Virus record (IMG/VR): IMGVR_UViG_3300044678_003030 | Span: 29,957-93,956 of that record | Reading direction: 5' to 3' (one strand) | From: a virus | DNA length: 64,000 bases | Part shown: piece after piece, positions 21,099 to 46,560 of the stretch | How positions within the stretch are numbered: position 1 is the first letter of the stretch | How the letters are laid out: each line of letters starts with the position of its first letter | Program-made: the position numbers and the translations under genes | The notes under the pieces: model-generated | Seen by the model: only the letters and a program-made list of their open reading frames with translations | Databases searched by the model: none | What the model was told of the DNA's origin: nothing

Positions 21099-21104
21099 GC
21101 CGGT

Positions 21105-21146: not shown

Positions 21147-22058
21147 TCAGGCGAAGACGAGGTGCTGGACCGACTCGAAGTTCCCGATGCCGATGCCCGG
21201 CGCCGAGTACGAGTCGAAGGAGATGACGTCGCGCTTCTGCTCGATGAACATCGTCGCGTCCTGGAGCAGGTAGAAGCGGCCGAGGAACTCGTTCGGGGCG
21301 AGCACCCAGCACTCCTTCTTGTCGTAGACGTGCACCTTGGTGGTCACGACCGCAGGGACGCCGTAGAGGTGGTCCTCGCCGTCGATGCCCTCGCGGTAGT
21401 GCTTCGACGCGATGTCGTTGCCGAGCGCGGTCGCAGGGAGGTCCATCGCTTCACGGAAGAGTCGCTTGGTCAGCAGGAGCTTGCCGATCGGGCGGCGGCG
21501 GTCGTCCATCGCCTGGAACGAGCGCTTGAACGCGTTCGAGGTGAACGACGACGCGCCGGTGCGCTGGATGGTCGAGTTCCGGTTCACGATCGAGAGGAGC
21601 GTGCGCCGGAAGTAGTGGTCCTCCTGGTCGCCCATCTTCTTGACCGAGTTGTCGGCGATGACCTTGCGGATATCCATCCGGTAGGTCATGAGCTCCCACT
21701 TCGTCTTCTTGTACGTCGGCGTGGTGATCTTGCCGAAGTAGATCTCGTAGCGGTCGCCCTTGATCCAGTGGGCCTCGGGGGTGCCGGTGAGCTCGACCCA
21801 CGTCGCGTAGGTCTCGTCGTCGCCCGGCTCCTTCTCCACGATCTTCATCGGGCGGTCGGTCGTGGAGACGCGGTCGATCTCGTCGTCCGCGAGACCGATC
21901 GGCTCCATGACCTCACGGACCGCCGCCTCCTGGAGGATCAGGTTGCGGATGAAGGAGTTCGAGGCGTCCTCGGCCTCCTTCGTCTGGCCGCTGTCCAGCA
22001 TGGAAAGGAAGCGCGAGTTGTAGACGCGCGTCTGCACCTGAGTCGTTTCCGTCTTCAT
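21147..22058 (-). CDS. Major capsid protein (HK97-like fold inferred)
   Basis: 303 aa, very strong codon bias, downstream of protease/scaffold genes; HLYGVPAVVT motif. Confidence 0.7.
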   Translation of the reverse strand: MKTETTQVQTRVYNSRFLSMLDSGQTKEAEDASNSFIRNLILQEAAVREVMEPIGLADDEIDRVSTTDRPMKIVEKEPGDDETYATWVELTGTPEAHWIKGDRYEIYFGKITTPTYKKTKWELMTYRMDIRKVIADNSVKKMGDQEDHYFRRTLLSIVNRNSTIQRTGASSFTSNAFKRSFQAMDDRRRPIGKLLLTKRLFREAMDLPATALGNDIASKHYREGIDGEDHLYGVPAVVTTKVHVYDKKECWVLAPNEFLGRFYLLQDATMFIEQKRDVISFDSYSAPGIGIGNFESVQHLVFA

Positions 22059-22112
22059 CGTCCTGTCACTCCAAGAAAGCGTGGGGCTCTTTGTTGCTCG
22101 TTGTCGTTCGTG

Positions 22113-22625
22113 TCAGGTCGACTGCGGCATGATCACGTCGAGCGCGCCGTTCGCACGGAGCGCGCGAGGCCCCACGTACGCGATGTGCTTGATGTTGTCG
22201 TTGGCCAGCAGCTTCGGCGCGAGGTTGCCATCGACCGAGGGCGACGGCACGAGGGGCTGCCCTGCCGCGTACGAGGCCGCGTCGATCTTCGTGGTCTCGA
22301 ATCGCCCGCCGAGGAAGGCGAAGACGGAGCCGTCGAAGGAGAAGTCGTTGTTGCCGGAGAACACGCAGAAGTAGAGCTTCGGCATGTCGGTCCCGATGAC
22401 GCAGTCGGTCGCCTTGACCCAGTTGCCCTCGGCGTTCATCTCGATGATGAGTCCGCCCTCCCAGTCACCCTGGACCGGAGTTCCGTTGTCGCCGGGGACG
22501 CCGACGCCGTCACCAGCCGCGATGGCCTCGGCGACGTTCTGGGGCTGAACGTTCAGCCAGATGGCGCACATCGCGCCGGTCTGCGGCTCGTTGGTCTTGA
22601 GGTTGAACTTGGACGAGAACTTCAT
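22113..22625 (-). CDS. Putative capsid decoration/cement protein
   Basis: 170 aa, strong codon bias, immediately upstream of capsid gene; YAAGQPLV motif. Confidence 0.5.
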   Translation of the reverse strand: MKFSSKFNLKTNEPQTGAMCAIWLNVQPQNVAEAIAAGDGVGVPGDNGTPVQGDWEGGLIIEMNAEGNWVKATDCVIGTDMPKLYFCVFSGNNDFSFDGSVFAFLGGRFETTKIDAASYAAGQPLVPSPSVDGNLAPKLLANDNIKHIAYVGPRALRANGALDVIMPQST

Positions 22626-24357: not shown

Positions 24358-26226
24358 TCAGGACAGGAGTAGCGCACCAAGCGCGCCGCTGAAGTCGTCG
24401 AGCGATAGGGTAGGCGGTTCGGTCGAGTCTTCTGCCTGCTTCTCCCAGCGCTCGAAGTGATCATCGGCGAGATCTGAGATGCGGGTGCGGCGTCGCATCT
24501 CTGCGGCCATGTTCCCGCTGTGGCATTGCGCCGGCAGCCGCTCGGCGTAGTCCGAGGCAAACTTGGCCAGGACGGAGGCCAGCTTGAACTCGGTTCCCCC
24601 GGAGACGCGGACGCCTTGGTCGGTCAGGTACGCCGGGTTCCGGTACGGGCGAGCGGCGCGTAGAACGTGAGGGGCGGTCACTGCGCCAAGTCCGATTCCA
24701 CCGAGCGTAGAAGCCACGGGGTTCACGCCGCCGAGCCCGTAGAGCCCGAGCCCGTAGAGGGCTGACAACCCGACCGTCGTACCTACGAGACCCTTCATGT
24801 CTTCGTGGTTGGCGCGCATGGCGGCGCCACGGGTCGTCGTGTAGCGGTGCCCCGTATTCGGGTCCGTCATCGATAGGAGATCGGTCCTCGGCGGTTCTTG
24901 CGCAGAGGTCAGATAGCCGGGTCCGAGAGGAGGGTCGACCGTCTGGTTCACGCGCTGCTTGAGCCAGTCGTCCATCGAGGCGAGCTTGGCTTCGACCTCT
25001 GCGGACGGGCGCCTCGGGTCGATGGTCACATAGGCCCCGAGCTCTTCGGCGAGCTTCGGGTATCGCCCCATGATCGAGAGCACGGACGGCTGGAGCGTGA
25101 CCATCCTGTCGAGCAAACGAGCAGAAGGGATCACGCCTGCGGTCTTGCGCAGGAAGACGCGCGCGAACTCGCTCGCCGTGAGAGACGCGTTCTTGGACGC
25201 GAGCGTCGAGAGCAGGGCGTCGAACGGCAAGCCAGCGAGGTCAGCGACTTGCGCCTCAGTCGCGCTAACCGGAGCCTTGAGGGGCACGGTCTGCCGGTAC
25301 TGGCGGATCGCCTGGATGTCGGGCGCTGTACGGACAGCCTCGATGTCTCCCGCGATCTCCTTCTGGATGTCGGAGACCTTGTTTACGGCCGCTCGCTTGG
25401 CTTCGTAGTCGGCAACCTTTTCACCGAGTGAAGCTCCTGTACGGATCACGTACGCATCCTCGGCGACCTTCTTGAGCATGAACCCTGTGCGGTCTGCCGG
25501 GCGCCACACGAAGGAGATGTCGAAGAAGCTCGGTGATGGGTTGAGCGCGCAGTTCCTGATCCCCGTCGCCGGATCGATCTGGCGCATCGCCGAGCGGAGG
25601 TGCTCGCAGTAGTCCTTGCGGGTCGGGGCTCGGTGTCCGCACTTGGCGCACACGTCCCAACGGACGTTGCAGCCCATCGACACAGCCGGGAATTCACCTG
25701 CGTTGATCTTGCCGACGAGCTCAGGGTCGAGGCGATTCCTGATCTCCAGCAGGAGCTCGCTCCGGTGCATGGAGCTGTTCCAGAACGCCTTCTCGATTCG
25801 ACCGAGCGACTTGCGGGGGTCCTTGTTGACGTGGTGCTTGTAGATCCCGCCACGTGTCTCGAAGGTCTTGTAGTGCTGGGTGACAACTTCGTCCGGGGAG
25901 ATCCAACCTTCGAGGTTGCGCGGTTGACACCCTGGATGGCCACAGGTTGCCCGCTCTCCCACGCGGTAGGTGCGCTCCGGGAAGGCGTCGCCGTTGCGGT
26001 TGTCATCGTAGTACTCGTAGGCGCCGAACGCGTTGACGAGGACGATCGTGCATCCTTCGCGAGGGGTGACCGTCTTGATGTAGTCGAACGCCTCAGACGC
26101 GGTCTTTTCGGACGAACCCGGACGTTCGGTGTACCAACGGCCCTTCTCAGAACGAGCGATGACGCGCAGCGTCGGTTCGCCGGTCTTGGGGAAGTAGTCG
26201 TCGAGCTCGATGATTTTGGTGAACAT
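24358..26226 (-). CDS. Prohead maturation protease with Zn-finger insertion and C-terminal extensions
   Basis: NRNGDAFP, YKHH, VSMG (putative catalytic Ser), CAKC..YCEH, FFDISFVWRPAD, consistent with HK97/assemblin-type phage proteases; upstream of capsid genes. Confidence 0.75.
   Translation of the reverse strand: MFTKIIELDDYFPKTGEPTLRVIARSEKGRWYTERPGSSEKTASEAFDYIKTVTPREGCTIVLVNAFGAYEYYDDNRNGDAFPERTYRVGERATCGHPGCQPRNLEGWISPDEVVTQHYKTFETRGGIYKHHVNKDPRKSLGRIEKAFWNSSMHRSELLLEIRNRLDPELVGKINAGEFPAVSMGCNVRWDVCAKCGHRAPTRKDYCEHLRSAMRQIDPATGIRNCALNPSPSFFDISFVWRPADRTGFMLKKVAEDAYVIRTGASLGEKVADYEAKRAAVNKVSDIQKEIAGDIEAVRTAPDIQAIRQYRQTVPLKAPVSATEAQVADLAGLPFDALLSTLASKNASLTASEFARVFLRKTAGVIPSARLLDRMVTLQPSVLSIMGRYPKLAEELGAYVTIDPRRPSAEVEAKLASMDDWLKQRVNQTVDPPLGPGYLTSAQEPPRTDLLSMTDPNTGHRYTTTRGAAMRANHEDMKGLVGTTVGLSALYGLGLYGLGGVNPVASTLGGIGLGAVTAPHVLRAARPYRNPAYLTDQGVRVSGGTEFKLASVLAKFASDYAERLPAQCHSGNMAAEMRRRTRISDLADDHFERWEKQAEDSTEPPTLSLDDFSGALGALLLS
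25420..25432. promoter_or_regulatory. TTCAC-N3-GTGAA site
   Basis: TTCACCGAGTGAA. Confidence 0.85.
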
Positions 26227-32677: not shown

Positions 32678-34435
32678 TCAGCCCGTGGCGAGGAGCTCGC
32701 GCAGGCGAGAGTCGCGGTTGGACGGGGGAGCCGCGAGGATCTGCTGGAGTGCAGCGACCTTCTGCGACTCGGTCCAGCCGACCGGGAGCGCGCTGCCGTA
32801 GGCGGCGGCGACCTTGCTGAAGGACGCCATGTAGCTCGCGTCCGCAGCCTTCTTGTCTTCGCGCGCGACGACGTTGTCGGCGTTGACGAAGGGCACGCCG
32901 GCGCGCGGAGCCTGGACGACAGTCTCCGGGGTCGACGGTGCGCTCACGGGAGCCTTGCCCTGCGCGTTCTCGGCGTAGCCTGCGGGGCGCTGCTGCTTCT
33001 CCACCGCCGCGAGCTCGTCCGTCTTTGCGGCGTCGGCGACCGTGTTGGGGCCGTGCGGGGTGAGCGAGCCAGCTCCGGCGAGCTTGAGCTTCGAGGCGAA
33101 GGTCTGCGGGTTGCGACGCGCAGCAGCGGTCTTCGCGAACTCGGTCTTGACGAGCCACCGCGTCTCAGCCGAGGCGCACTTGGTGAGCGCATCGCGGTTG
33201 TCGGCGAACACACTGCGCAGGAGCGCGCTGGCGTCGGCGGCGGTCTTCGCGACGTGCGCGACGTGCGCGAGCACCTCCTGCCCCTGCGGGTGGTCCATGA
33301 GCCCGGCGACGGCAGCCTGGGACTCATCGTCCTCGGGGGCGAGGGACTTGAGCTTCTCCCAGATCATCTGGAGCAGCGCGGTCTGCTCGTCAGCGGGCGC
33401 CCCTTCGGCGGGCATGGGCGGCTCCGCGTCAGTCAGACCTTCGGCCGGGTTGCCGTCCCCGAACTCCGTGTCCTCACCACCGGCCAGCTTGTTGCCGAGC
33501 GCCGCAGCGGCGAGCTTGGTCGCCTGCCGCTCCGCCTTGTAGGCGTTGTAGTTGACGCTCGCGACCTTGGCGTACTCGCGAGCGGTGCTCGCGACAGCCG
33601 GGACCTGCTTGGCGATCTGCTCGTCGGTCGCGATCTTGATCAGCCGATCCGCGAGGAAGCCGATCACACCGGCCTGCGGCGCCTTGCCCATGGACGCAAC
33701 CTTGACGAGCGCGTCCTGGTCCTCCTTCTTGAGCGTCGCCATCGCGGCCTTGACGTGCGCGTCGTTGAGCGCCGCGAACACGGGCGTCATGAACCCAGCA
33801 GCGGCGACCTTGGCCACGCGCTCCTCCACACCGGCCTGCTTGAGCCCCACGTAGAGGCGCTCGGCGGCGGCCTTGGCGCTCTGGTCAGTGAGCGAGTTCG
33901 CGATCATCGGCGAGATCTCTGGCCGGGCCGGGTCAGCGATTTCCTTGGGGCCGGTGATGCCAGGAGCAGGGAGAAGCGTGTCGGCGCCCTGCGGCTGCTC
34001 GGCGTAGCCGACGGGGCGTTGCGAGATCTCCAGGGCCGCCATCGCGTCTGTGTTGGCCGCGTCGATCAGCGTGTTGGGACCCGCCTCGGTGAGCGATCCG
34101 GCGCCCGCCTGCTTGAGCATGCGGTCGATCCAGAAGTTCGAGGCGGCGCCAGCGCGGCCACAAAGGTCTTCGACCGAAGCCGTCTTGGTTCGGCCTTGCG
34201 GCGCGTGACCCATCTTCGAGAGGTTGGTTGCAGCCTCAATGAGGCGAGCCTCGATCTCCAGCGCCGCCTCCTTGGGGAGCAGCTCGGTGACGATCTCGGG
34301 GCCGCTCCACTCCTGGGAGATCTGCTCGATCGCAGCGGCGGCGACCTTCTCGTTCGGCCACCCCGGGTGGCGACCTGCGTCACTCGACGCTTCGTTGATG
34401 CCGGTGATGAGAGTACGGATCGCGAGGTTGCTCAT
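32678..34435 (-). CDS. K-x-A-rich internal head protein with duplicated ~43-aa module
   Basis: About 20 K-x-A motifs; GAGSLT..GPNT..DAA.TD..AA.E..QRP.GYAE..QG twice. Confidence 0.7.
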   Translation of the reverse strand: MSNLAIRTLITGINEASSDAGRHPGWPNEKVAAAAIEQISQEWSGPEIVTELLPKEAALEIEARLIEAATNLSKMGHAPQGRTKTASVEDLCGRAGAASNFWIDRMLKQAGAGSLTEAGPNTLIDAANTDAMAALEISQRPVGYAEQPQGADTLLPAPGITGPKEIADPARPEISPMIANSLTDQSAKAAAERLYVGLKQAGVEERVAKVAAAGFMTPVFAALNDAHVKAAMATLKKEDQDALVKVASMGKAPQAGVIGFLADRLIKIATDEQIAKQVPAVASTAREYAKVASVNYNAYKAERQATKLAAAALGNKLAGGEDTEFGDGNPAEGLTDAEPPMPAEGAPADEQTALLQMIWEKLKSLAPEDDESQAAVAGLMDHPQGQEVLAHVAHVAKTAADASALLRSVFADNRDALTKCASAETRWLVKTEFAKTAAARRNPQTFASKLKLAGAGSLTPHGPNTVADAAKTDELAAVEKQQRPAGYAENAQGKAPVSAPSTPETVVQAPRAGVPFVNADNVVAREDKKAADASYMASFSKVAAAYGSALPVGWTESQKVAALQQILAAPPSNRDSRLRELLATG

Positions 34436-35397
34436 GCGGGGTTCCTTTGCGGAGAGTAGTCTAGGCGAGGATGGGAATCTCCCGTGGGCGCAGGGGCCTT
34501 GGACAGGAGCTTACGCCCACCATGAATGGCGGCGCCGGAGAGGAGTAGCGCGCTTACGGGGTTCTGCTTCACGGCATCGATGACAAAGCCTTTGAGATCT
34601 GCCGTCTTCGGGGGAAGCATCTGCTGCACGGGTTGCTGCACGGGTTGCTGCACGGGTTGCTGCACGGGTTGCTGCACGGGTTGCTGCGGGGCCTTGGGAT
34701 CGAACTTCGACCCAACCCACTGGCCGAGCTGCTGGATCGGTTGCTGAATCAGGACAGCTCCGGGGATACCGAGGCGCGAGGTCAACGGTGCTGCGGCGAG
34801 CCCGGCGACCATGCCACCGATGTTGCGCCCAAGGTTGGTTCGGCCCTGGCGCGCGATACGGGCGGCGTTCATTGCAGGCCCGAGCAGGCCCAAGGCCGTA
34901 CCGAGCGGGTTGCCCCGGGGGACGTAGAAGTCACGCGCCATTCCCAGGTAGCCCTTTTCCCGAAACTGACGGTCGAGGGCGAGCGGCGAGCCGAAGACGT
35001 TTTCCCTGAGCCCTTCGCCGACGACATGTCCGACGTTTTTGGCCCACCCGCCAAAGCCCTTGCCGTATCCTATCGCGGCAGGCATGAACGAGGCGCCGTT
35101 CGGTTGGATGACCTTGCCATCCATCTTGAAGGCGCGATTCTCCGGCATTCGCATCACGGGTTGATGTGCGCCGTAAGCCTGCATTCCGAGGATGTGCTTG
35201 CCAAAGAAGTTTGGCTGGAAGAATCCGTCTTGTGTGGACCCGGCGAGACGGTTGTGGAGGAACCCTGTTGGGGCCTGCACCTCGGGGGTGCTGTGGAACG
35301 GCAGTCCGTGCTCGTCGAATAGAAAGCGGCCAAACCCCTTGGCTTTTGCCACCACGTCGTCGACGACCGCTGCCTCTTTCACGCCGTGAAATGTCAT
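34432..35397 (-). CDS. Hypothetical protein with hydrophobic segments and QQPV repeats
   Basis: VKEAA, PKTAD; QQPV x5. Confidence 0.65.
   Translation of the reverse strand: MTFHGVKEAAVVDDVVAKAKGFGRFLFDEHGLPFHSTPEVQAPTGFLHNRLAGSTQDGFFQPNFFGKHILGMQAYGAHQPVMRMPENRAFKMDGKVIQPNGASFMPAAIGYGKGFGGWAKNVGHVVGEGLRENVFGSPLALDRQFREKGYLGMARDFYVPRGNPLGTALGLLGPAMNAARIARQGRTNLGRNIGGMVAGLAAAPLTSRLGIPGAVLIQQPIQQLGQWVGSKFDPKAPQQPVQQPVQQPVQQPVQQPVQQMLPPKTADLKGFVIDAVKQNPVSALLLSGAAIHGGRKLLSKAPAPTGDSHPRLDYSPQRNPA
34622..34687. repeat. 12-bp tandem repeat TGCTGCACGGGT x5.5
   Basis: Directly visible; encodes QQPV on the minus strand. Confidence 0.95.
35378..35390. promoter_or_regulatory. TTCAC-N3-GTGAA site
   Basis: TTCACGCCGTGAA. 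Confidence 0.85.
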
Positions 35398-37199
35398 CAG
35401 TAGGTACCGTCCAGCCCCTGCCGCAGTTCAGCGCCGAAAGCGTAGGCAGGCACAGGGTGAACCCCGTGGATGTTCGAGCCGAGGCCCTCAGAAGCCGCGC
35501 GCGAGATTGTACCCTTGAGACCTCGGTGTGCGAGGAGGGCGAGCCAGTCGTCATCCAGCAGCGGGTTTGTCGCCAGAGGCTTCATGACGTGTTCGATCTT
35601 CGGCATGCTACGGCTGACGAGTACCTCTCGGATGCCTTTACGGCTCAGGTCGTTGGCGACTGACGGCGTGATGCGGGTACCGAAGGTGTAATGGAACACC
35701 TCTTGGCCTAGCACCTTCCCGATGGCGTCAGCCAAGGGAACACGAGACACGTCTTTGGCGTAGGTCTCTCGGAGGCGGTTGTAGTTGACCACGTCGCCCT
35801 TGATCAGCTCCGGGTGCGATGGGTCTTGCTCGGAGATGCGGACGTGGTTCAGAACGCTCTTGGCGAGCAGTTCGAAGTGGCGCCTGTCCATCGACACGCC
35901 TTCGTTCTTGTAGACCCCAGCCAGCGAGTTCACAAGGTTCTCCCGAGACGCCCCAATTCCCTTGTAAAGCGTCAGCTTGGCAGGGTGCGGAACTCCGTCT
36001 GTCAGGGAATCACCAGCCTCCACGTGCTGGCCAACCCTCACTTTTACGGAGAGCTCGGGCTGTGAGTAGAGCTTCTCCTTGTCCACCCACACGAAGTGAC
36101 CGCCTTGAGCCGCAGGTTCGATCTTCGTCACGACACCGTCGGCCGGCGCGAGGGTTGCTTCGTGCGCGAACGCCTTGGGGATCTCCAGGAGCTGTCGCAC
36201 TCCCTTGAGCCCCTGTGGGTTCAAATTGCGCTCACGAATCGTGAGCACCGCGTGCTTGGACCCGAGGGCCATCTGCGTAAGCGGCTCGGCGAGCGCATGC
36301 GCAGTACGGATTCCGACGTTCGTCCCAATGGAGTGGAGCTTGCCCTTTTCGTCGAGCCCCATGCACATCTGGCAGACGCCCTGCGTTGCCGTACACGTCA
36401 TAGGGCTGCGTACGGTGAAGTCGACGTCGTTCGCAGCGCGGAACTGCTGAACGACGCGCGGAGTGATCAGGGTGTTGCGCGGGATCTTGTGCTCAGAGAT
36501 GGCAAGGTATCGATCGATCGCGTGTTGATCATCGACGTGCAGGAGGACGCCGTTTTGCGTGCCACAGTCATGCGCGGTGACGACCTTGGAAGATGTGTTG
36601 GCGATGAGGAGCTTTGCCATCTCACCGGGTTGAGACACAGAGACGACGGACGCGACGTTGTTGGCGCGTGCTTCAGGCGCGACTTCCCAGTACTCAGCCG
36701 GCGAGAGACCCTCGGCATAGGAGTGCCGCACAAGGAAGGAACCGATGCCACGCCCAGGCAGGTTTGACGCGAGAGGGGTCGCGACGATCTTCATGAGCTG
36801 AGACGGGTTGCCGCGTGCCCCCGAGAGCGCCATGTGAGTCATTGACCCGGGGTGGCTCTTGGTCTGCGCCAAGAGCTGCGTCTGTGCTCCGATGACGAGC
36901 TTCTCCCTCTTGGTCGGGTCCTTCTCCGCAGCCAGAGCGTCGGCGACGTTGTTCATGATCGCGTCGCGCTCTTTGTAGAGCGGCCTTACGTCAGACACGC
37001 CGACGGTGATGCCTTCCAAGGTCGCGATCTCGTCGCCGCGCTTCTTGAGCTTCTGGATCGTCTCGACGTACTTCTGCGGGTCGGACTTCGCGAGCCCTAC
37101 GACATGGTCATGAAGCTGCCGCTGGGTCATCGGCCCTGAGACCTTGTACCCATCGGGCAACACGTTGTTGACCAGCAGATGTCCAATTGTTGTGGGCAT
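35397..37199 (-). CDS. rpoC: Phage multisubunit RNA polymerase, beta' C-terminal part
   Basis: SGARGN, SYAEGLS..EYW, DCGT, RSPMTC..GVCQMC, VGI..A.ALAEPLTQMAL..H (trigger loop), QGL..V..LLE, RHFELL; start 37199 or 37220. Confidence 0.9.
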   Translation of the reverse strand: MPTTIGHLLVNNVLPDGYKVSGPMTQRQLHDHVVGLAKSDPQKYVETIQKLKKRGDEIATLEGITVGVSDVRPLYKERDAIMNNVADALAAEKDPTKREKLVIGAQTQLLAQTKSHPGSMTHMALSGARGNPSQLMKIVATPLASNLPGRGIGSFLVRHSYAEGLSPAEYWEVAPEARANNVASVVSVSQPGEMAKLLIANTSSKVVTAHDCGTQNGVLLHVDDQHAIDRYLAISEHKIPRNTLITPRVVQQFRAANDVDFTVRSPMTCTATQGVCQMCMGLDEKGKLHSIGTNVGIRTAHALAEPLTQMALGSKHAVLTIRERNLNPQGLKGVRQLLEIPKAFAHEATLAPADGVVTKIEPAAQGGHFVWVDKEKLYSQPELSVKVRVGQHVEAGDSLTDGVPHPAKLTLYKGIGASRENLVNSLAGVYKNEGVSMDRRHFELLAKSVLNHVRISEQDPSHPELIKGDVVNYNRLRETYAKDVSRVPLADAIGKVLGQEVFHYTFGTRITPSVANDLSRKGIREVLVSRSMPKIEHVMKPLATNPLLDDDWLALLAHRGLKGTISRAASEGLGSNIHGVHPVPAYAFGAELRQGLDGTY

Positions 37200-37209
37200 T
37201 GAATGTGTG

Positions 37210-38037
37210 CTACCGAACAAATGCGTTCAGTTGTTGTACGTAGGAGGATTGTGGACCCGGCAGTCTGAGCGAAGCATCAAGCCGTGGCAGCGCCATGGCT
37301 TCGTTGCCAGGGGTCAGCCCCCGCCAACGTCCCAACTGCTTGGTCGCGGAGTCGACCGCGACTTGACGCTTCGCTGCGCTGGCGAGTGCGGGGGCTGCGT
37401 TGACCGCTTGCGTGGCTTTCCCGATCCCGTCTGCCATGTAGTGTCGGAAGTTCAACAGCCGGTTTGTTGATACATCTGGGTTTTTTGCGCTGTTGAGAAT
37501 CTTGTTCTGAACCCAGGCGCTGCTGACGGCCGTCTTGGTTGTGCGCCCCTTCAGTTTGATGCCAAGCTGCTTGAGAAGCCCAGGAGCGACGACAGGGGCC
37601 GCAGCCTTGTTGAAGCCGAACACGCTTCGAAGTGACGCGAGCTTGGACGCCTCGACGTGCGAAGGTTCCTGATTCGGGATGTTGCTCGGAAGTGGTGCGG
37701 CGTACGCAAAGAGCTGCCGTGGTGTGTTCATCCCGCTGTAGACTCCGTAGCCGAGACCCGCGAGGCCGCCGATAACGCCGCCGAGGTCTTTGCCTGCCGG
37801 GTTGTCGAGGAGGTTGCCGAGGGCCATTCCCGCCCCAACGCCTGCGGGTGTTGCGAGCGCAGAGACTCGTGCGCCGCGCTTGAACTTCTCCCACGCCGTA
37901 GGGTTCGACATCATGACCGTAATCAGCCGTCGATCCTCCGGCGTGCCGGGTTGATCCTCGTACCCATGTGTTGACGCAACCCCGGGCGGCACGTCATTGG
38001 CGGTCTTCGTGAAGCCGAATACGATGTCGAGGTTCAT
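37210..38037 (-). CDS. K-x-A-containing protein with Gly-zipper module
   Basis: VFGFTKTA, SKLAS, VFGFNKAA, TKTA; probable start MNLDIV. Confidence 0.55.
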   Translation of the reverse strand: MNLDIVFGFTKTANDVPPGVASTHGYEDQPGTPEDRRLITVMMSNPTAWEKFKRGARVSALATPAGVGAGMALGNLLDNPAGKDLGGVIGGLAGLGYGVYSGMNTPRQLFAYAAPLPSNIPNQEPSHVEASKLASLRSVFGFNKAAAPVVAPGLLKQLGIKLKGRTTKTAVSSAWVQNKILNSAKNPDVSTNRLLNFRHYMADGIGKATQAVNAAPALASAAKRQVAVDSATKQLGRWRGLTPGNEAMALPRLDASLRLPGPQSSYVQQLNAFVR

Positions 38038-38041: not shown

Positions 38042-38989
38042 TCACCAGTCGAATGGTACAGGGATCGTGGCTTCGATCTCAGATCCACGGCTTCCGGCCT
38101 CGCCACGCCTCTTGCGCAACACCGACTTGGCCTTGCCGTTCTCGTCGAATCCGAAGTCTGTCTTCTGTAGCACGTCGATGAGCGGCTGGAGCGGGTCCGC
38201 TGCGCTGGTCTTCACCGCGTGAAAACCGAAGACTTCATCGAAGGAAGCCAGCTTCGCCGGAAGTTGCAGGGGTTGGGTACGCGCTTTGACTCCGAGCAGT
38301 GCCTTCGTCTCAGGGTCTAGCTCGGCTTCGACATTGTCCGCCGTGGACTTACTCCCCAGGATCTGTCCCTTGAGGTAGTAGCCGAGCCCAGGGATTCCTT
38401 CTGTGACGACGTGCGGCAGTCCTTGGATAAGAGCCTTGGTTTTGCCAATGCGCCGTGCCAGCATTGTCGCCGCTGGGTGGGCGTCTTCGTGCATCGTCCA
38501 GTTGTCGCCGTGCGAGTGGAGATGAAAGAGGTTGTCCGGGTGCCTGTACGTCCTGAACTCGTCCTGTCCCTTTTCAGGCACTGCAATCAGGACAGACTCG
38601 AACCCGAGGTTTTGGACGTCATCTCGCGAGATATGGCTCTTGGGGATGAGCACACGCTTGTGCCCGGTACCCGCGTAAACACCCTTGGTGCGAAGAAGAT
38701 TCGCGTAGTTGTCGAAGCGGGCCTGAACTTCAGGTGAAACATCGGCGAGCTTCTCGGGGTTCGCCCTAGCAGCGTCTTCGAACTTCCCCTTGAGGTCGTA
38801 GAACCCCGGCGAGGGGTCCACGTAGAACCCCCGTCGCTTCATCTTTCGGCGAGTCTCAACAGGCTGTCCCGCTGCGAGCTTGCAGACGAGGGTACTGGCT
38901 TCGTAGGGGTGCACGCTGGAAGGGTAATGCAGGTCAGCCGATTTCGACGGGGTCGTCGACTTTGACTTCGCCGCGACGCCATGCCGCAA
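38042..38989 (-). CDS. Hypothetical protein with His-rich motif
   Basis: FHLHSHGDNWTMHEDAHP; CKLAA, EKLAD, AKLAS, VFGFHAVKTSA; start uncertain. Confidence 0.55.
   Translation of the reverse strand: MRHGVAAKSKSTTPSKSADLHYPSSVHPYEASTLVCKLAAGQPVETRRKMKRRGFYVDPSPGFYDLKGKFEDAARANPEKLADVSPEVQARFDNYANLLRTKGVYAGTGHKRVLIPKSHISRDDVQNLGFESVLIAVPEKGQDEFRTYRHPDNLFHLHSHGDNWTMHEDAHPAATMLARRIGKTKALIQGLPHVVTEGIPGLGYYLKGQILGSKSTADNVEAELDPETKALLGVKARTQPLQLPAKLASFDEVFGFHAVKTSAADPLQPLIDVLQKTDFGFDENGKAKSVLRKRRGEAGSRGSEIEATIPVPFDW
38211..38223. promoter_or_regulatory. TTCAC-N3-GTGAA site
   Basis: TTCACCGCGTGAA. Confidence 0.85.
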
Positions 38990-41900
38990 CGGCTTCGGCC
39001 TCAGTCTTGAATCGACGCACAGGTTGCGCCTTGTTGGGCGTGTACTTGAGCGCGTGCGTGATCCCGATGATCGCCTCGTGCTGCGGAAACGCCATCAGCT
39101 TGTTGGGCGTCTGGTCGGAGAGCAGCAGGTGGGACATTGTCATGCGCTTGGCGTCGTCGATACCTGCGCGGGTGAGCGGTACGTGAACCTGAAGGGTGTC
39201 ACCGTCGTAGTCCAGGTTGAAGCCCTTCTCCACGAAGGGCGAAACCCTGATCGTCTTCCCCATCGTCGGCTGTGCGTACGCGGCGACGATGCCGAAGCGG
39301 TGGAGCGTCGGCGCGCGGTTCAGTAGCACAGGCCGCTCCTTGGTCTCTTCCACGAGGCATTGCTTCGCAGCAGGCGCCCGCTTGTCGACGAGCTCTCGTG
39401 CGTGAAGCGCGCTGTAGCCCTTGCGCACCAGTCGAGCGACCAGGAGCTTGTCGAACATCTGCCAGAGCATGTCTTCAGGCAGGCTCACAGCGTCCATGTG
39501 CAGGTTGCCGTCAGGCACCGCCGTACCACGGCCAGAGACGTCTTGCTGCCTCTTCATCAGCTTGCGCTGGAAGAAGCCACCCTTTGGTGACCCTTGCCCA
39601 GAGACCTGAGTCAAGAACCCCTTGACCTCCTCCTTCTGGAGCTTCTGGTCGTCGACGGTGTGGGTCCCGAACACGGCTCCAACGGCGTTGTAGAGCGCAG
39701 CCCGGTGCTTCGGAACGTCCGAGTCAAGGACGGCGTCCTTGACGGCGTCGTTCACGTCCATGAGATGCCCGTAGAGCTTGTTCGCATCGGCGACCATGAG
39801 CTGAGACGGGTTGTTCTTCTGCTGCGTGATCGGGCGGAAGATCGGCGGAATCACAGGCACCTTCGAGAGTACGTAGGCGTTCTCCGGTCGGAGCCCCTCG
39901 GCCTTGAGGGCGCGTAGGTACTTGATCTGCTTCACCGCGTTGTTCAAGTCGCTCGCCTTGAGCATCGGCAGCTTGCCCTCAAGCTCCTTGAGTTTGGCGT
40001 CGATGTTGATGCTCGCGAGCTCCTTCTTGATGTGCCCGCCGCCCTTCTCCTTGAGGAGGTCGGTGAACCGCTTCTCGGTCAGTCCGAGGAGGCGCCGAAT
40101 CGGCTCCTCAAACACCGGGTTGGGCATGGCCTCGTGAAGGTCCACGTGGGAGTAGAGCGTGCCCTCGGTGCCGCCCGTGAGGAAGGGGTCAAACAGCCCG
40201 CCCTTTTCGGGCTTGAGGTTCTTGGCGATGAGGGTCTTGCTGTTTTGCACAGCACCCGAAGAGCGCGCCATGATGTCAGCGTCCGTCGCCGGCAGCAGGC
40301 GGAACTTGGAGCCATCCTTGCGGACCTTGACTCCCGCGCCTTCGAGCATCGCCTGGAACTTGTTGAAAGCGAACGACGGACGGTTCGCCGGGAGGGGCTG
40401 TCCGAGCTGAATCGCGCGCCAGAACGCCTCGTTCTTCTGCCCTCGGATGTTGGCGGCGTCGGAGAGCATTCCGCGTGCGTTGTGCGCCAGCAGCGCATCC
40501 ACCTCCATCTTGCCGAGGCCCTTGGCGCCTTCTTCGCCACCCTGCTTGAGGGGCTGCTCGTTGGCGTCGTAAGGGCCGACACCGTGGCCCGCGAAGTTTG
40601 TGTCCGTCGACTTGAAGAGCTTGAAGATGAAGCTCCGACCCACGAACACACCTTGTCCGTCAGGGCCGACGATCTTTCGGCCGCTCACAGGGTCGTGTAC
40701 GTGTTCGTACCCGCTGACGTTGTGCTCCTTGGCGAGCCTCTCGACCCAGTCGATGGCGTTCTCGGACGACGCGTTGTCGAAGAAGATCGGCTTCTTGGTC
40801 TTCTCCGCGATCTTACCCGCCAGAGCCTCGTGGAGCTGCGCCGGGTTGATGCGGGAGACCACGCCCGCGCTCGTCATCAGTAGCTCAACAGGATTGCCTG
40901 CGGAGTCTTTGATCATCTCCTTGTCGGAGACGATCTTGGCGACCACGCCTTTCCCGCCGAAGCGGTTCGCCAGCTTGTCGCCGACCTGCATCTGCTCGTG
41001 GGTCTTCACGAGGACCGCGATCTGCGTCGGGGTACGCACGACGTCGACGACTTCTCCCTGCGTCCCATGCTCCCAGGACAGGGAGACTTCCTGCCAGGGC
41101 TTGGTGAGCGTCTTGGAGATCTTGCCGAGCATCAGGTCGGTGCCGGTGACCTGTGCCTTGGCGAGTCCTGCGACGAGGAGGTCGTGGTGGTTTACCTTCG
41201 CCCCCTTCTTCACGACGCCGGTTTCGTCGAGCTGCGCATACTGCGAGGGTTGGTACTTCGCGCCGAAGTAGACCTTGTGGCGCTTCGCCGAGAGCTCGAT
41301 CGTCGCGTTGAGCGGAAAGACCTCGCGGTACATGTGCTCGGAGGTCATTCGCTTGGCGAAGCCCTCGCTGATCACCACGGCGTCGTTGGAGTTCAGCCCG
41401 TAGTAGGGCATGTACGCGACACGCGCGTTGAGCCCTGACGCGAGCGTGCCGTTGCGCGTGAAGTTCGAGTCGCCGAGCATCTGCCCCATCTCGACGGTGT
41501 CGTTGGCCTTCACCGAGAGGGTGTGGTGCAGGCGCGTCTTCGAGGGGAAGGGGAAGTTGTCGCTGTAGGGGACCTTGATGAGCTCACGCTCGCGACGGGC
41601 CGCTTCTTTCACCGAGTGAACCTCGGCCGGGCTCGGGTTTTCCCACGGGGCGTAGCCGTGCATAAACCACTCACCGAGCGAACCCGTATTGAGATCATCA
41701 AGGCTGTCATCATGCGTAAGCTGCGGGGGCAGGACACCGTACACCACATCAGCGGCTAGCCGGGGGAGACGCTTGCCGGCAGAGGCCAACGCACCATCCG
41801 CGCCAGGGTAATTGAACATGTACCGAACGTCGCGCCCGGCCAGCCCTGCGTTCATTGCGGCGTGGTTTGCCCAGATGCGCCCGTAGCTCGCCGTCTTCGA

Positions 41901-44006
41901 CCCCTTCCGGTAGTCCTCGATCTCTTCCTTGAGATCATCCCAGGAGGCGTACTCGACGCGGTTGACACAGCGAGTCTTCGGCTTGCGCTCGATCTGACGC
42001 AGGACCGTGTCGACCTTCTCCATGGGGACGCCGACGATGAACTTCACATCGGCCGGCTTCCACTCACCATCTTCGTTCTGTTCGTCGGTGTCGACGGAGA
42101 CCAGGGCGCCGTCAGGGTCGTCACCGACCCAGAAGTCCAGGGAGTCGCCATCAGGGCCTTCGAAGCCCGGGAGGTAGCCATAGTCGCAGGGGAAGGGATG
42201 ACCCCAGGGCTTCTCGCCCTTCTCGATCTCGATTTCGAAGGTGAAGGGCCCGTGCTTCTTGGACTGCGCCACCGGGCGGTCCGCGAGCTTCTCTTCCTCT
42301 GCGGCCCTCTTGGCGCGGCGCGGCTCAATGTAGATGAACCCGTGTTCGATCTTGCGCACAATGCCGCTCACGGGCGCGAGCGGCACAACCATGCGGCCGT
42401 AGAAGTCCTCATAGGACCCCCCGTCCGGGTGTTTGACCTGCACCAAGGGCGCCTCCCGCTGAAGCAGTGGCAGACCCTGTGTCTGCATCTTGGAGCCCAT
42501 GATCGCACGGTTCCCCTGGATCGAGTGCAGGAGAGGGATCAGGCTCGTGGCCGGCGAGTAGGTGTGCGAGACGTGGAGCTGCTGATAGTCAACGTCCTTG
42601 GCGTCGACCTTCTGGACCTGCCCTTGGTGAAGCGCGTCTACACGCCCCTGCATGCGCTGATGCGGGAAGGCGATGACTTTGCTCATCATGTCCGAGGCGT
42701 TCACGAACTCGGTCTTGTTGGTCCGTGCGTTCCTGAGCGGTGTGTAGAGGTTGCCCTCTTCGTCTCGGTGAGCGGCGATCGTGGCGCGGATGTCGACGCC
42801 TGCGTGGCCGCTCTCTGGCGTGCGGATCGGGTCGAGGATGCCGAAGTGCGTCGCGTGCGTGAGGCGTGTTGAAAAAGGGATCGCGCGCTCACTGGGAATG
42901 CCGCCCTCTCCGAGCGCTGTGACCTTCACCGAGTGATCGAGGAGCTCAAGCGGGTTGATTCCCGTGGGCACCGCTGAAAGGGCGCTCGACGTGATGAACT
43001 GGCGCAGCGGCTGGGAGAAAGGAGCTGGCTTGAGAGAGCCTCGGATCTCCTGCTTGCCGTTGAGCGCCATGCGAGCCTTCGGAGCCCATTCGCGCGCGGT
43101 GAGCTTCACGCGCTCTGCGAGAAAGTCGTCCACGCTGTGGAATGTCTTGAACGCGAGCGAGTCGGCGTCGTCCTCCGGGTCTTGACCCCTGTGCACGCGG
43201 AGCAGCTTTTGCGCTGCGGCGAGGAGCGCAGGCGGGGTGACCTTGTCGTGTGACGCCCCGAGCGTGATGCGCGTGACGTGCGCGTCCATCACGGTGTTTC
43301 CGAAGCGCTTGATGACCTCTGCGAGCTTCTCGGTGTGGCTCGCCTTGGCATTGAACACGGACTCGTGCGCGAGCTTTTGGTAGAGCTTCGCGATCGAGAT
43401 CTCCTCCTTGCCGCCGAAGAGCGCCTTGTTGGCGTCAGCGATGGGAGCGCCGAGCTCGCGCGCGATGACCTCATGGGTGACCCCGAGGGCGCGTAGCACA
43501 GGGTAGAGCGGGATGTTCGTCGAGTCGTAGACGAGGTAGAACGCTGACTTCGCCGGGTCGATCGTGACGTTGAAGTTCGCACCCTTGGAGAGGTTGAACG
43601 TCGTGTGCAGCTCCCCGTTCGCGCTCCGCTGCGTGTACGCGCCAGGACGGCGACGCAGCATGTTCGCGATCTGGTACTCGTTGCCGTCCATCAGGATGGT
43701 GTGGCGTTCGGAGAACCACGGGAGGTGCGTGAGGGTGAAGTTGCGCGCCTCGTTGACGATCTTCCCGTCGCCGTCTTTCAGGACGAGCGTCCCCTTCACG
43801 GGCTCAGAGAGCGAGTCGCCGGTGAGGAGCGCGTGCTTCTGCTCCTCAGGGGAGAAGTCTCGCGCGAGCACCTTGATGTCCTTGACCTCCAGGGTGCGAC
43901 CCTTGAGATCGACGGGGAATGCGCGTTCGAGCTCCCTGACGACTTTCCCGCGCACATTTTCGCGCAGCGAGTGGGCGTCGGTGAGTACAGGTGACAGGAC
44001 AGGCAT
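38934..44006 (-). CDS. rpoB: Phage multisubunit RNA polymerase, beta fused to beta' N-terminal part, with PPase-like insertion
   Basis: beta: HFGILDPIRTPESG, NRAIMGSKMQTQ, NSNDAVVIS, GDKLANRFGGKGVV, SRIN, GLGKMEVDAL; beta': KPEKGGLF, VPVIPPIFRP, LLNRAPTLHR, catalytic FNLDYDGD. Confidence 0.92.
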   Translation of the reverse strand: MPVLSPVLTDAHSLRENVRGKVVRELERAFPVDLKGRTLEVKDIKVLARDFSPEEQKHALLTGDSLSEPVKGTLVLKDGDGKIVNEARNFTLTHLPWFSERHTILMDGNEYQIANMLRRRPGAYTQRSANGELHTTFNLSKGANFNVTIDPAKSAFYLVYDSTNIPLYPVLRALGVTHEVIARELGAPIADANKALFGGKEEISIAKLYQKLAHESVFNAKASHTEKLAEVIKRFGNTVMDAHVTRITLGASHDKVTPPALLAAAQKLLRVHRGQDPEDDADSLAFKTFHSVDDFLAERVKLTAREWAPKARMALNGKQEIRGSLKPAPFSQPLRQFITSSALSAVPTGINPLELLDHSVKVTALGEGGIPSERAIPFSTRLTHATHFGILDPIRTPESGHAGVDIRATIAAHRDEEGNLYTPLRNARTNKTEFVNASDMMSKVIAFPHQRMQGRVDALHQGQVQKVDAKDVDYQQLHVSHTYSPATSLIPLLHSIQGNRAIMGSKMQTQGLPLLQREAPLVQVKHPDGGSYEDFYGRMVVPLAPVSGIVRKIEHGFIYIEPRRAKRAAEEEKLADRPVAQSKKHGPFTFEIEIEKGEKPWGHPFPCDYGYLPGFEGPDGDSLDFWVGDDPDGALVSVDTDEQNEDGEWKPADVKFIVGVPMEKVDTVLRQIERKPKTRCVNRVEYASWDDLKEEIEDYRKGSKTASYGRIWANHAAMNAGLAGRDVRYMFNYPGADGALASAGKRLPRLAADVVYGVLPPQLTHDDSLDDLNTGSLGEWFMHGYAPWENPSPAEVHSVKEAARRERELIKVPYSDNFPFPSKTRLHHTLSVKANDTVEMGQMLGDSNFTRNGTLASGLNARVAYMPYYGLNSNDAVVISEGFAKRMTSEHMYREVFPLNATIELSAKRHKVYFGAKYQPSQYAQLDETGVVKKGAKVNHHDLLVAGLAKAQVTGTDLMLGKISKTLTKPWQEVSLSWEHGTQGEVVDVVRTPTQIAVLVKTHEQMQVGDKLANRFGGKGVVAKIVSDKEMIKDSAGNPVELLMTSAGVVSRINPAQLHEALAGKIAEKTKKPIFFDNASSENAIDWVERLAKEHNVSGYEHVHDPVSGRKIVGPDGQGVFVGRSFIFKLFKSTDTNFAGHGVGPYDANEQPLKQGGEEGAKGLGKMEVDALLAHNARGMLSDAANIRGQKNEAFWRAIQLGQPLPANRPSFAFNKFQAMLEGAGVKVRKDGSKFRLLPATDADIMARSSGAVQNSKTLIAKNLKPEKGGLFDPFLTGGTEGTLYSHVDLHEAMPNPVFEEPIRRLLGLTEKRFTDLLKEKGGGHIKKELASINIDAKLKELEGKLPMLKASDLNNAVKQIKYLRALKAEGLRPENAYVLSKVPVIPPIFRPITQQKNNPSQLMVADANKLYGHLMDVNDAVKDAVLDSDVPKHRAALYNAVGAVFGTHTVDDQKLQKEEVKGFLTQVSGQGSPKGGFFQRKLMKRQQDVSGRGTAVPDGNLHMDAVSLPEDMLWQMFDKLLVARLVRKGYSALHARELVDKRAPAAKQCLVEETKERPVLLNRAPTLHRFGIVAAYAQPTMGKTIRVSPFVEKGFNLDYDGDTLQVHVPLTRAGIDDAKRMTMSHLLLSDQTPNKLMAFPQHEAIIGITHALKYTPNKAQPVRRFKTEAEAVAAWRRGEVKVDDPVEIG
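41608..41620. promoter_or_regulatory. TTCAC-N3-GTGAA site
   Basis: TTCACCGAGTGAA; at the edge of the RNAP insertion. Confidence 0.85.
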
Positions 44007-44313: not shown

Positions 44314-44326
44314 TTCACGGGGTGAA
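44314..44326. promoter_or_regulatory. TTCAC-N3-GTGAA site
   Basis: TTCACGGGGTGAA; intergenic. Confidence 0.85.
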
Positions 44327-44341: not shown

Positions 44342-44815
44342 CTACAGCTTCGGTGCGCGGGTTTCGCCCATTGCCCGGCGAGAAGACGCTTCGAGGTCTT
44401 CTTTTGTCTTCGGGCGAGCGACACCGACGGACTTGATGATCGTCCCGTTCTTGAGCGTCGTCGTCTCGGTCTCGTAAAACCGACACACCCCGTCCGCGCG
44501 ATCTTGCAGCAGCTTTCGGTAGTCCTTGATCTGCGTGTGGGGGCAGGTGTGGTCACCCTCATCTGGTAGGACGAGGGTTCCAGCCTTGTGCCTCCCGCGG
44601 CACAGCGCGCACGACTCCCACGGGCGGAATACGACAAAGATGCAGTGGTCGAGGTCCCACTTCATCTGCTCGATCGCCCGACCGAAAGGGTTCCTCGGAT
44701 CGTCTTTTGGCACTCTCGGGTGAGCATCCTCGGGGCCGAGGGGATTGCGCAGCCCGCGTGCTTGCTTGTCTGCGGCGTCTGCCGACTCCGCGAAGTTCTC
44801 GGTGCTTGTGTTCAC
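44342..44815 (-). CDS. Hypothetical Cys/His-containing protein (157 aa)
   Basis: GTG start overlaps portal stop; CxxC and CPH. Confidence 0.55.
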   Translation of the reverse strand: MNTSTENFAESADAADKQARGLRNPLGPEDAHPRVPKDDPRNPFGRAIEQMKWDLDHCIFVVFRPWESCALCRGRHKAGTLVLPDEGDHTCPHTQIKDYRKLLQDRADGVCRFYETETTTLKNGTIIKSVGVARPKTKEDLEASSRRAMGETRAPKL

Positions 44816-46542
44816 TGCATACCACCTTGTGCTGCGCCGCCCTGCATCGAGCTGCGTGCCTCTGCTTCCTGGTTCTGCTGGATCTGCTGGATCCTTTGCA
44901 TGACCACTGCGTGCAGGATGGGTTGTGATCCTTGCAGGTTGTCGACGGCGTTGGTCCTCGCCGCCTCGTCCATCTGCATGTACTCCTGCGCCTTCTGGTC
45001 GGCCGCGCCCATCACTTGATCCGTGTTGTTGTAATCGATTGGCCCCGACGCCTGGGACTGTTGACGCGCTCGCTGGCTGAGGGAGGTCTGGATCTTGTTG
45101 ACTTCGAACTCCAGGATCTGCTGCTCCCGTAGGTCGTCGATGGTGTCTTGGCGGCGCTGCTTGCGTTCGTGGTCGGCGTCGATCTCGAACATCTCGTAGA
45201 TCGTCGTATCCGAGATTTTCCCCTGCCCCCAGAGCTGGAGCATGAGCTCCTTGCGCGCCGTGTCGTCGATCATCTTGAAGTCGCTCAGGCGCACGTCGAT
45301 CGGCGTGGTACCCAAGAACTTCGCGGTTTTGAGCTCGATCCAACGGAAGAGCCCGTTCAGGTTGTTGATGTGGTTCTGGAGCTGGTTTTCTATCATTCGC
45401 AGCGTCGTCTCGCCGCGTGTCTGCCCGAGACCGCCTTCCAGGAACTCCCTCGGCACGCCGAAGGCCAGCATGATGTTCTTCTCGGCCGCTTCGAGCTCGG
45501 CGAACGTCAGCATCGCGCGGCCTTGGCCCCCGATGTCCTGTACGCCGACGGGAACAGGGGAGATGATGATCTTGTTCGGGTCGCGCTTGAAGTCGCGGAA
45601 CCCTTGTTCCATCTTCTCGCGGAAACCGTCGAGGTCGAGCGACATGCTCGGGTCCCCTGCCACCCCTTGACCCGTGGGGTGAATCACACGCATCGGCGTG
45701 ATGTGTTCGAGCGCGACGGCTTCGTTGCCGCGCCGGAGCGCCGCCGCGAAGAGGAACATCTCGATCGCCGCTGCCACAGGGGGCAATCCCCACTCCGGTC
45801 GAAGACCCGACAGGTTTGGCATCTTCATGTGGTAGAGGTTGCCCTCGTTGAACCGGAGGAGCTTGCCCTTCTGCACCGTCTTCAGGATGCTCATCGGCAT
45901 CGTGTTGATGAGGTGCTGGTCCCCCGCGCGAATGTCCTGTCGCAGGTCTTGCGGGATCTGGAAGTAGTAGACTGACTGGTTGGTCAGCGGGTTGTGCTTG
46001 ATGTCGAGGAGCTTCGGGTCCCACCGGGTGAGATTCAGCCGGCGCGCGTCGACGAGAGGGATGTCTTTGATCTGCGCGCGCACAGCGTTTCGGCATCGTG
46101 GGCAGTCGTACTTGATCGTCAGCTTCTCCAGCGAGAAGTCGTAGTCCTCGACTGCGACGATGTCGGTCTCTGCGCGGCACCTCGGGCAACAGAGCATCCG
46201 CTTGAACGGCTCGTAGAGCGACGCTGCCGCGTTGCCGTAGACCCAGGCGTCGAAGGACATGACACCCGCGAACTCACGCGCCCGAAGGTGGTCGTCATAG
46301 AGCTCACGGTGGCGTTGGCGCTCGGCCACACCGACGTCGCCGAACTTGAGCTTGGTGAGTGGATACTCGCCAAACTTACGCACGACGGCGTATACGTGAG
46401 GCGAATGCTGAAGAAGCACCTCCGCCCAGTAGAAGCATTCCTTGATCGTTCTCGGGCGAGAACGACGGAAGATCGTGTCGAGGGGGTGCCCATGCAAGCC
46501 CTCCCGCAGGAAGGGCGATCGTTCGCCAGCGTAGTCGAGCAA
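44812..46542 (-). CDS. Portal protein with Zn-ribbon insertion
   Basis: 576 aa, first gene of virion operon; YGNA, WGLPP, AFGVPREFL; CPRC x2. Confidence 0.7.
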   Translation of the reverse strand: MLDYAGERSPFLREGLHGHPLDTIFRRSRPRTIKECFYWAEVLLQHSPHVYAVVRKFGEYPLTKLKFGDVGVAERQRHRELYDDHLRAREFAGVMSFDAWVYGNAAASLYEPFKRMLCCPRCRAETDIVAVEDYDFSLEKLTIKYDCPRCRNAVRAQIKDIPLVDARRLNLTRWDPKLLDIKHNPLTNQSVYYFQIPQDLRQDIRAGDQHLINTMPMSILKTVQKGKLLRFNEGNLYHMKMPNLSGLRPEWGLPPVAAAIEMFLFAAALRRGNEAVALEHITPMRVIHPTGQGVAGDPSMSLDLDGFREKMEQGFRDFKRDPNKIIISPVPVGVQDIGGQGRAMLTFAELEAAEKNIMLAFGVPREFLEGGLGQTRGETTLRMIENQLQNHINNLNGLFRWIELKTAKFLGTTPIDVRLSDFKMIDDTARKELMLQLWGQGKISDTTIYEMFEIDADHERKQRRQDTIDDLREQQILEFEVNKIQTSLSQRARQQSQASGPIDYNNTDQVMGAADQKAQEYMQMDEAARTNAVDNLQGSQPILHAVVMQRIQQIQQNQEAEARSSMQGGAAQGGMQ

Positions 46543-46547: not shown

Positions 46548-46560
46548 TTCACTCCGTGAA
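46548..46560. promoter_or_regulatory. TTCAC-N3-GTGAA site
   Basis: TTCACTCCGTGAA; at the portal/helicase divergence. Confidence 0.85.

Follow-up and report, generated by a model that had tools for sequence, protein, structure and literature searches.

A pyrophosphatase-type domain in the RNA polymerase beta subunit of an uncultured phage: a variable, motif-bracketed loop that may be a cargo slot for the phage head

The RNA polymerase gene and its interrupted beta loop

The stretch of phage DNA analyzed here (called the window below) comprises 64,000 nucleotides, positions 29,957 to 93,956 of IMG/VR virus record IMGVR_UViG_3300044678_003030, a record that is 93,956 bp long and about 53% complete. 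On its minus strand the window encodes a 1690-amino acid (aa) RNA polymerase (RNAP) protein whose beta portion is interrupted by an insert with two modules, a predicted inorganic pyrophosphatase (PPase) domain of the InPase type and a helical domain, and the short motif K-x-A-[A/S] lies at the borders of the insert and between its modules. The features of this gene on which the analysis depends are as follows; pLDDT is the per-residue confidence value of the AlphaFold2 structure models, and cargo-less homologues are those with only a short loop at the insertion site.

38934..44006, minus strand: RNAP beta fused to the N-terminal half of beta', 1690 aa, stop-free translation
41592..42317, minus strand: 242-aa insert, aa 564-805, borders from alignment with cargo-less homologues
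42300..42311, minus strand: junction 1, KRAA, aa 566-569, in the low-confidence N-terminal stretch of the model (block pLDDT 61)
41907..42260, minus strand: module 1, predicted InPase-type family I PPase domain, aa ~583-700 (from PF18823, a profile, AlphaFold2/Foldseek and residue conservation)
41886..41897, minus strand: junction 2, KTAS, aa 704-707, between the InPase and module 2, at a pLDDT dip of 76-79
41619..41885, minus strand: module 2, ~90-aa all-helical domain, aa ~708-796 (AlphaFold2 pLDDT 95.9)
41598..41609, minus strand: junction 3, KEAA, aa 800-803, overlapping a palindrome copy at 41608-41620

The 1690-aa protein matches the Pfam families of Rpb2 domains 2, 3 and 6 and then those of Rpb1 domains 1 and 2 (PF00562 at 1.8e-37, PF00623 at 6.9e-18), and it stops shortly past the catalytic N-L-D-Y-D-G-D motif at aa 1597-1603, the site of the beta' aspartate triad. 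Since Rpb2 domains are followed by Rpb1 domains and the protein ends just after NLDYDGD, it is beta fused to the N-terminal half of beta'. The closest cultured relatives, at about 33% identity, are Salmonella phage Arash and Vibrio phages D69, D148 and D181, and the Arash homologue of the RNAP protein is gp206 (33% identity); a megablast search of the region against isolated phages gave no match, and a search for related loci in which the insert alone was the query gave none either.

The insertion site was compared in a family alignment of RNAP homologues. The insert sits in the barrel-hybrid domain, in a hairpin loop that shortly precedes the catalytic barrel of beta. In bacterial beta the equivalent by alignment is a short hairpin, near residue 610 in chain C of the T. 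thermophilus structure 1iw7; the conserved, acidic N-x-x-D motif of the barrel follows ~60 residues downstream of this hairpin, whose length varies among bacteria too. From the N-terminal side, the peptides at the site are APVSGIVRKIEHGFIYI (aa 544-560), AKRAAEEEKLA (565-575), FPCDYGYLPG (605-614), SKTAS (703-707), VKEAA (799-803) and IKVPY (810-814). An initial annotation of this DNA had proposed a PPase-like insertion of about 235 aa at 41600-42312, bounded by K-x-A motifs; every peptide that it quoted is present in the 1690-aa translation, and the homologue-based borders widen its extent slightly to the 242 aa given above. Its finding that K-x-A motifs bound the insert also stands, as just three K-x-A-[AS] motifs occur in the protein (at aa 566, 704 and 800, with 1.8 expected from composition) and all three are at module junctions, which are the least confident stretches of the structure model.

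The same annotation had seen no intein signature, and none was found here: the insert has no Hint or intein Pfam match, and the R-A-K-R of the first insert region, the Ala after the N-terminal junction and the Leu after the C-terminal junction are unfit for splicing. Inteins in polymerase genes likewise are folded modules that interrupt conserved polymerase domains, but the present insert lacks a Hint domain and its enzyme is of another fold. Relatives of this phage do carry LAGLIDADG/Hom_end elements (PF14528, PF05204) elsewhere in the RNAP gene; those of P0002, P0004, P0013-P0016, P0018, P0025 and others have them at other positions and encode proteins of up to 2,800 aa.

That the record is an IMG/VR contig from a metagenome would leave room for a chimeric contig or a false fusion. 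We consider such an artifact exceedingly improbable: the frame is uninterrupted, with gene-like GC3 (G+C content at third codon positions) along the whole of it, and an identical 1690-aa protein is present on two contigs. Misassembly at a junction is very unlikely because independent assemblies (P0003, P0009 and about 70 others) have the same architecture at the same residue.

The InPase-type domain and the helical module

The match of module 1 to PF18823 (InPase), at aa 597-664, is borderline and reproducible, with 27.6 bits against a cut-off of 26.8 when the insert alone was searched, 28.3 bits in the genome scan and 23.6 bits, below the cut-off, when the whole 1690-aa protein was scored. 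A profile built from 40 sequences related to module 1 had its best PDB sequence match in the C-terminus of the Pa193 portal protein gp19 (E 2e-9), followed by about 40 classical family I PPases with E from 4e-4. The AlphaFold2 model of module 1 has a mean pLDDT of 89.7, and when it was compared with the PDB by Foldseek, all listed matches to rank 50 were family I PPases (E from 2e-4, probability ~1.0), so that the fold check proposed with the initial annotation gave a predicted PPase fold. Among 74 RNAP-embedded copies of the domain (below), Y609, G610, D619, D624, K655 and G659 are invariant, and positions E593, D621 and D653 are acidic in all 74. By the profile alignment we take Y609, D619, D624, K655, E593, D621 and D653 to be the equivalents of Y55, D65, D70, K104, E20, D67 and D102, respectively, of E. 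coli PPase, in the customary numbering. Profile, predicted fold and conserved metal ligands thus support the identification of module 1 as an InPase-type family I PPase, and the PPase-like insertion in beta that the initial annotation described is borne out to that extent.

That annotation had also read the conserved residues as the family I PPase signature; the family holds, and the full classical form does not. The absence of a beta-hairpin between strands 1 and 2 is the criterion by which the InPase clade is defined (Iyer et al. 2017, PMC5512222), and module 1 belongs with this shorter clade, having a 16-residue gap in the profile alignment where the hairpin of the M. leprae and M. tuberculosis PPases lies. 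In E. coli PPase the missing hairpin carries E31 and R43. Compared with the classical enzymes (E. coli Ppa, M. tuberculosis Rv3628), module 1 has the same predicted fold (target TM 0.35-0.48) and shares the acidic ligands and the lysine, but it is about 16 residues shorter at the E31/R43 hairpin (E. coli numbering) and only 11-18% identical. One of the five InPase clusters found in relatives has extra residues at the hairpin position. Hydrolysis of pyrophosphate (PPi) by module 1 is plausible, not assured.

Polyvalent proteins delivered with the virion, and portal fusions, are known hosts of InPase domains (PMC5512222), and the domains of the BcepF1 portal and of Pa193 gp19 (PDB 9b41) are of the same clade, hairpin-less family I PPases (OB-fold according to the literature). 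In these proteins the domain is terminal or one of a series of effector domains, whereas here it is inside a loop of RNAP beta. The Pa193 portal InPase domain is unmodelled in the map, and there is no solved InPase-clade structure for comparison. The GC3 of the InPase segment is 0.845, against 0.845-0.859 for the host gene, and since its codon usage matches that of the host gene, the association appears to be old. This phage has a second InPase domain:

1050..1295, plus strand: InPase domain, aa 67-148 of a 1336-aa protein (852..4862), bracketed by EKSAE (aa 53) and EKEAS (aa 179)

This second domain falls in a different cluster from the RNAP-embedded one, to which it is 31% identical. Additional K-x-A sites and hydrophobic segments occur in the 1336-aa protein (852-4862, plus strand), which resembles a polyvalent virion protein that undergoes processing.

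Module 2 has the core motif H-x-A-L-N-x-G ... P-P-x-x-x-H ... G-Y-x-P-W. A Pfam search with it gave no match, the best E values of Foldseek searches of the PDB and BFVD were at least 0.4, and the best VIA match (Z 5.1) was within helical noise; the Atlas gave a weak lead, DUF1800-like fragments of low recognition value. In a HMMER scan the module 2 region matched a set of proteins separate from that matched by the InPase region. Its homologues include many free-standing proteins of 110-150 aa, and elsewhere it is fused to 2H/Acb1-like, GNAT and SNF2 domains. Module 2 looks like a recent addition, because its GC3 is 0.71 (0.85 for the rest of the gene) and because it is absent from P0003, a protein 96% identical overall in which the KTAS motif is followed almost directly by junction 3.

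A module that looks recently gained would be expected if the loop were simply permissive, gathering tolerated mobile domains by neutral or selfish accretion at no benefit to the phage, with a PPase that is perhaps inactive. The homing endonuclease and intein families PF14528 and PF05204 in other RNAP genes of this family (above) point the same way. Against it are the catalytic residues, invariant in 74 copies that fall into five divergent clusters, the confidently folded models of both modules, and the conservation of the junction motif; these three observations indicate purifying selection, and we regard mere accretion as improbable.

Variation of the loop among relatives and the distribution of K-x-A-[A/S]

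The initial annotation had suggested that homologous phage RNAPs be aligned to see if the insert is variable. Anchors on both flanks of the site, in homologues from databases (120) and in IMG/VR loci (80), gave 162 distinct loops. Large cargo (at least 90 aa; 90-551 extra residues) is present in 84 of the 162, and the rest are mostly 5-36 aa long; the insert is thus variable, and cargo at this site is not peculiar to this phage. The Arash-like branch has essentially no loop there. InPase domains, 74 copies in all, are present in 71 of the 84 large inserts and form five clusters of 52, 14, 3, 3 and 2 copies; the clusters in relatives are only ~28-33% identical to the copy in this phage, while the RNAP flanks are 50-70% identical. 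The loop can also be occupied by tandem InPases that belong to different clusters, by P-loop kinase-like domains (AAA_18/AAA_33), which may or may not be accompanied by an InPase, by module 2 alone, by an alpha/beta-like module, by glycine-zipper segments and by several unrecognised modules. The presence of unrelated and divergent cargo at one and the same loop argues for repeated exchange rather than for a single ancestral insertion tied to catalysis. In one relative (L007:12734-13118) a stop codon lies within the cargo, an alpha/beta-like module, and the reading frame of this cargo differs from that of the downstream anchor; a frameshift, an error in sequencing or a beta gene that really is split could each account for this.

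This variability bears directly on the main alternative to the interpretation that we favor (below). In that alternative, which builds on one of two offered by the initial annotation, the insert stays covalently in beta, the K-x-A stretches serve only as linkers (flexible or helical), and PPi is removed beside the polymerase by the InPase; its removal would favor forward transcription or suppress pyrophosphorolysis by the injected enzyme. The dominance of InPase at the loop, its host-like codon usage and old association, and its conserved catalytic residues all agree with such a tethered enzyme; PPi clearance has been proposed for InPase by Iyer et al. (PMC5512222), and an HD phosphohydrolase is fused to phage beta in Bacillus jumbo phages (PMC7824862). 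It is weakened by the P-loop kinase-like, module 2 and alpha/beta-like cargo, which occupies the same loop with no obvious role in nucleotide addition and in some cases with no InPase present, and by the bracketing motif, which is directional, is shared with head proteins and is kept in cargo-less loops (below) where a linker would be needless. In addition, the cytoplasmic PPase of the host would make a tethered copy largely redundant. We consider this alternative rather unlikely, and note that on this reading too a PPase built into RNAP would be a first.

The K-x-A-[A/S] motif follows the cargo. It is found at 86-95% of large-insert borders: in its strict form it lies within the last 14 residues of 86% of the 84 large inserts, compared with 0.46% of 13-aa background windows taken from RNAP bodies, and in relaxed form it is at both ends of 87% of the 84, compared with about 6% per single background window. 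Cargo-less loops have the relaxed motif in 88% and the strict motif in 49% of cases, and it is often doubled there, as in an empty slot. Elsewhere in the genome the motif is concentrated in the head module (22.6-35.4 kb), where 39 K-x-A-[AS] copies occur and 6.4 are expected from within-protein shuffles, a ~six-fold enrichment; the rest of the genome has 23 copies (17.1 expected), and DNA polymerase, primase and helicase have none. Reversed or permuted forms of the motif number only 3-10 copies in the same head proteins, so the enrichment is directional. Genes in the same position downstream of RNAP are likewise enriched in more than 30 related phages with GC contents from 0.38 to 0.69; in two of three Arash-like loci examined no enrichment was seen. 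That K-x-A simply reflects an Ala/Lys-rich helical composition was considered and rejected, as the within-protein shuffles and the reversed and permuted counts fall short of the observed numbers.

The RNAP gene is surrounded by genes for a helicase, a primase, a DNA polymerase, a portal protein, a candidate head-maturation protease and a major capsid protein. Those that bear on the head and on RNAP are the following.

24358..26226, minus strand: candidate prohead maturation protease, 622 aa (phrog_18299 'head maturation protease', E 1.2e-5, aa 118-213)
32678..34435, minus strand: 585-aa Ala-rich head-module protein with 14 K-x-A-[AS] motifs (2.0 expected)
21147..22058, minus strand: major capsid protein, 303 aa, with T-K-E-A-E at aa 26-30 (35% identity to the Arash major capsid protein gp226, E 2e-56)
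44812..46542, minus strand: portal protein, directly upstream of RNAP as in Arash (29% identity to Arash portal gp204, E 5e-95)
35397..37220, minus strand: C-terminal half of beta', the partner subunit encoded by a separate gene, 607 aa (Pfam Rpb1 domain 5 and PHROG matches)

The candidate protease has six K-x-A-[AS] motifs, compared with 0.5 expected, and has a homologue in Arash, the virion protein gp222, whose sole annotation is 'structural protein'. It is unusually long, with a recognisable protease region at aa ~100-290 and motifs at aa 41 and in the C-terminal third, and these motif positions suggest that it may process itself. In relatives, genes in the position of the one for the 585-aa protein are also motif-rich; this protein is probably an internal head or scaffold-like protein that would be chopped into small pieces. 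PHROGs and Pfam missed the capsid protein, which was found by BLAST against Arash gp226. The partner subunit, which supplies the rest of beta', shares 31% identity with Arash gp216 and contains no K-x-A-[AS] motif. A 321-aa protein (34432-35397, minus strand) has K-E-A-A at aa 7-10 and, near aa 240-265, Q-P-V-Q-Q repeated five times in tandem.

Packaging of the polymerase and possible release of its cargo

Arash is the relative for which virion contents are known: in mass spectrometry of its virions gp206 gave the most spectra of any protein (PMC10585845), and the capsid protein was covered to 86.6%. Because gp206 gave the most virion spectra, RNAPs of this family are most likely packaged in the virion. 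The portal-RNAP-head gene order is common to Arash and the phage studied here, whose own RNAP is probably packaged as well, by analogy.

Given a packaged polymerase, the other option of the initial annotation, a passenger released by the prohead protease with beta split into two chains, fits the evidence better than tethering does: the motif brackets every module, it is kept in cargo-less loops, and it has the six-fold directional enrichment in head proteins. Release is also favored by the presence of a candidate protease that itself abounds in the motif, by the low model confidence at the junctions and by the like bracketing of the second InPase of this phage. Since it is directional, dense in internal head proteins and placed at domain borders, as are the sites of T4-type and giant phages, we read K-x-A-[A/S] as a head-protease code. 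We therefore lean, with limited confidence, toward the view that one surface hairpin of beta has been turned into a cargo slot that the head protease cuts, releasing enzymes and splitting beta. K-x-A-[A/S] would be the recognition site of the phage's prohead maturation protease, and the polymerase precursor would carry its cargo into the prohead, where cuts at the three junctions would yield a free ~15-kDa pyrophosphatase and a free ~11-kDa helical protein. Beta would persist as two chains held within the folded enzyme, and the freed cargo would stay in the capsid; polymerase and cargo alike would later be ejected with the DNA into the host, where the pyrophosphatase might hydrolyse PPi, or a pyrophosphate-containing nucleotide, early in infection.

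Several points weigh against this interpretation. We know of no phage in which proteomics or biochemistry points to cleavage at K-x-A, nor of a prohead protease with this specificity. Pfam and PDB sequence searches with the candidate protease gave no match, and the PHROG match that identifies it is weak; the capsid protein has only the K-E-A-E variant near its N-terminus. Arash, the sole relative with virion mass spectrometry, has neither the loop nor the motif, and packaging is therefore extrapolated across 33% identity. The substrate of module 1 may differ from PPi, because the domain lacks the hairpin with E31 and R43. The strong predominance of InPase among the cargo of the loop hints at a link to transcription that release would not need. 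Finally, a literature search in which this question was only narrowly covered found no K-x-A-type prohead-protease motif.

The nearest precedents are the prohead-protease systems of T4 (gp21, with IPI-III), phiKZ (gp175) and SPN3US (gp245), in which a short tripeptide motif is likewise repeated in internal head proteins that are trimmed in the prohead and later ejected (PMC10052503). In SPN3US, whose head contents include the virion RNAP, the protease motif is A-X-E, and propeptides are chopped up at its multiple copies (PMC10052503). The motifs of these three systems are of the form x-x-E, whereas the one described here is K-x-A-[A/S]; and their cuts mostly remove N-terminal propeptides, whereas the cuts proposed here would be internal and would free a folded domain from the middle of a subunit. 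Extra domains at permissive surface sites of catalytic RNAP subunits are known too, in SI1 and SI2 of E. coli beta and in the HD-beta fusion of Bacillus jumbo phages (PMC7824862). Those are fixed, lineage-wide domains or terminal fusions, whereas the loop described here is hypervariable and holds interchangeable, unrelated enzymes bracketed by a conserved short motif. In the searchable literature we found no description of an InPase, or of an interchangeable cargo slot, inside RNAP beta; the fusion is nonetheless visible in databases, as precomputed Pfam labels flag PF18823 on many members of the family.

More speculatively, the beta loop might be a protease-site-bracketed slot throughout the clade. 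Cleavage at K-x-A would then make a split-beta enzyme even in cargo-less members and could activate a polymerase that is kept inactive in the producing cell, while the slot would load interchangeable small enzymes into the capsid at polymerase stoichiometry for injection. We put this wider proposal forward as a tentative one, and think it less probable than release of the cargo in the present phage.

If release by the head protease is correct, a core transcription enzyme doubles as the carrier of protease-released cargo and its beta subunit is split after translation. Multisubunit RNAPs packaged in virions, effector domains that are injected, and processing by prohead proteases are three themes that would thereby be joined, a combination for which we found no description. 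The motif K-x-A-[A/S] would be a candidate new prohead-protease specificity, the size and termini of the virion RNAP chains would be predictable, and the loop would be a natural site for loading foreign proteins into capsids. The cargo itself (pyrophosphatases, kinase-like domains and module 2) would point to needs of the first minutes of infection.

Two minor observations concern the surrounding DNA. At 20835-22220 of the record (G000:C1:20835-22220, outside the window, ~7.7-9.1 kb before its start) is the gene for a 461-aa protein with a metallo-phosphoesterase PHROG match (E 1e-19), a further phosphohydrolase in this phage. The window also has 25 copies, between 3290 and 61130, of the 13-bp palindrome TTCAC-N3-GTGAA, of which 0.02 are expected; they are often at gene boundaries, with examples at 41608-41620, 44314-44326 and 46548-46560. 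The K-x-A motif as a by-product of this palindrome was considered and rejected, as the palindrome is present in 12 of 80 related loci, a sub-clade made up of the closest relatives, whereas the peptide motif is family-wide.

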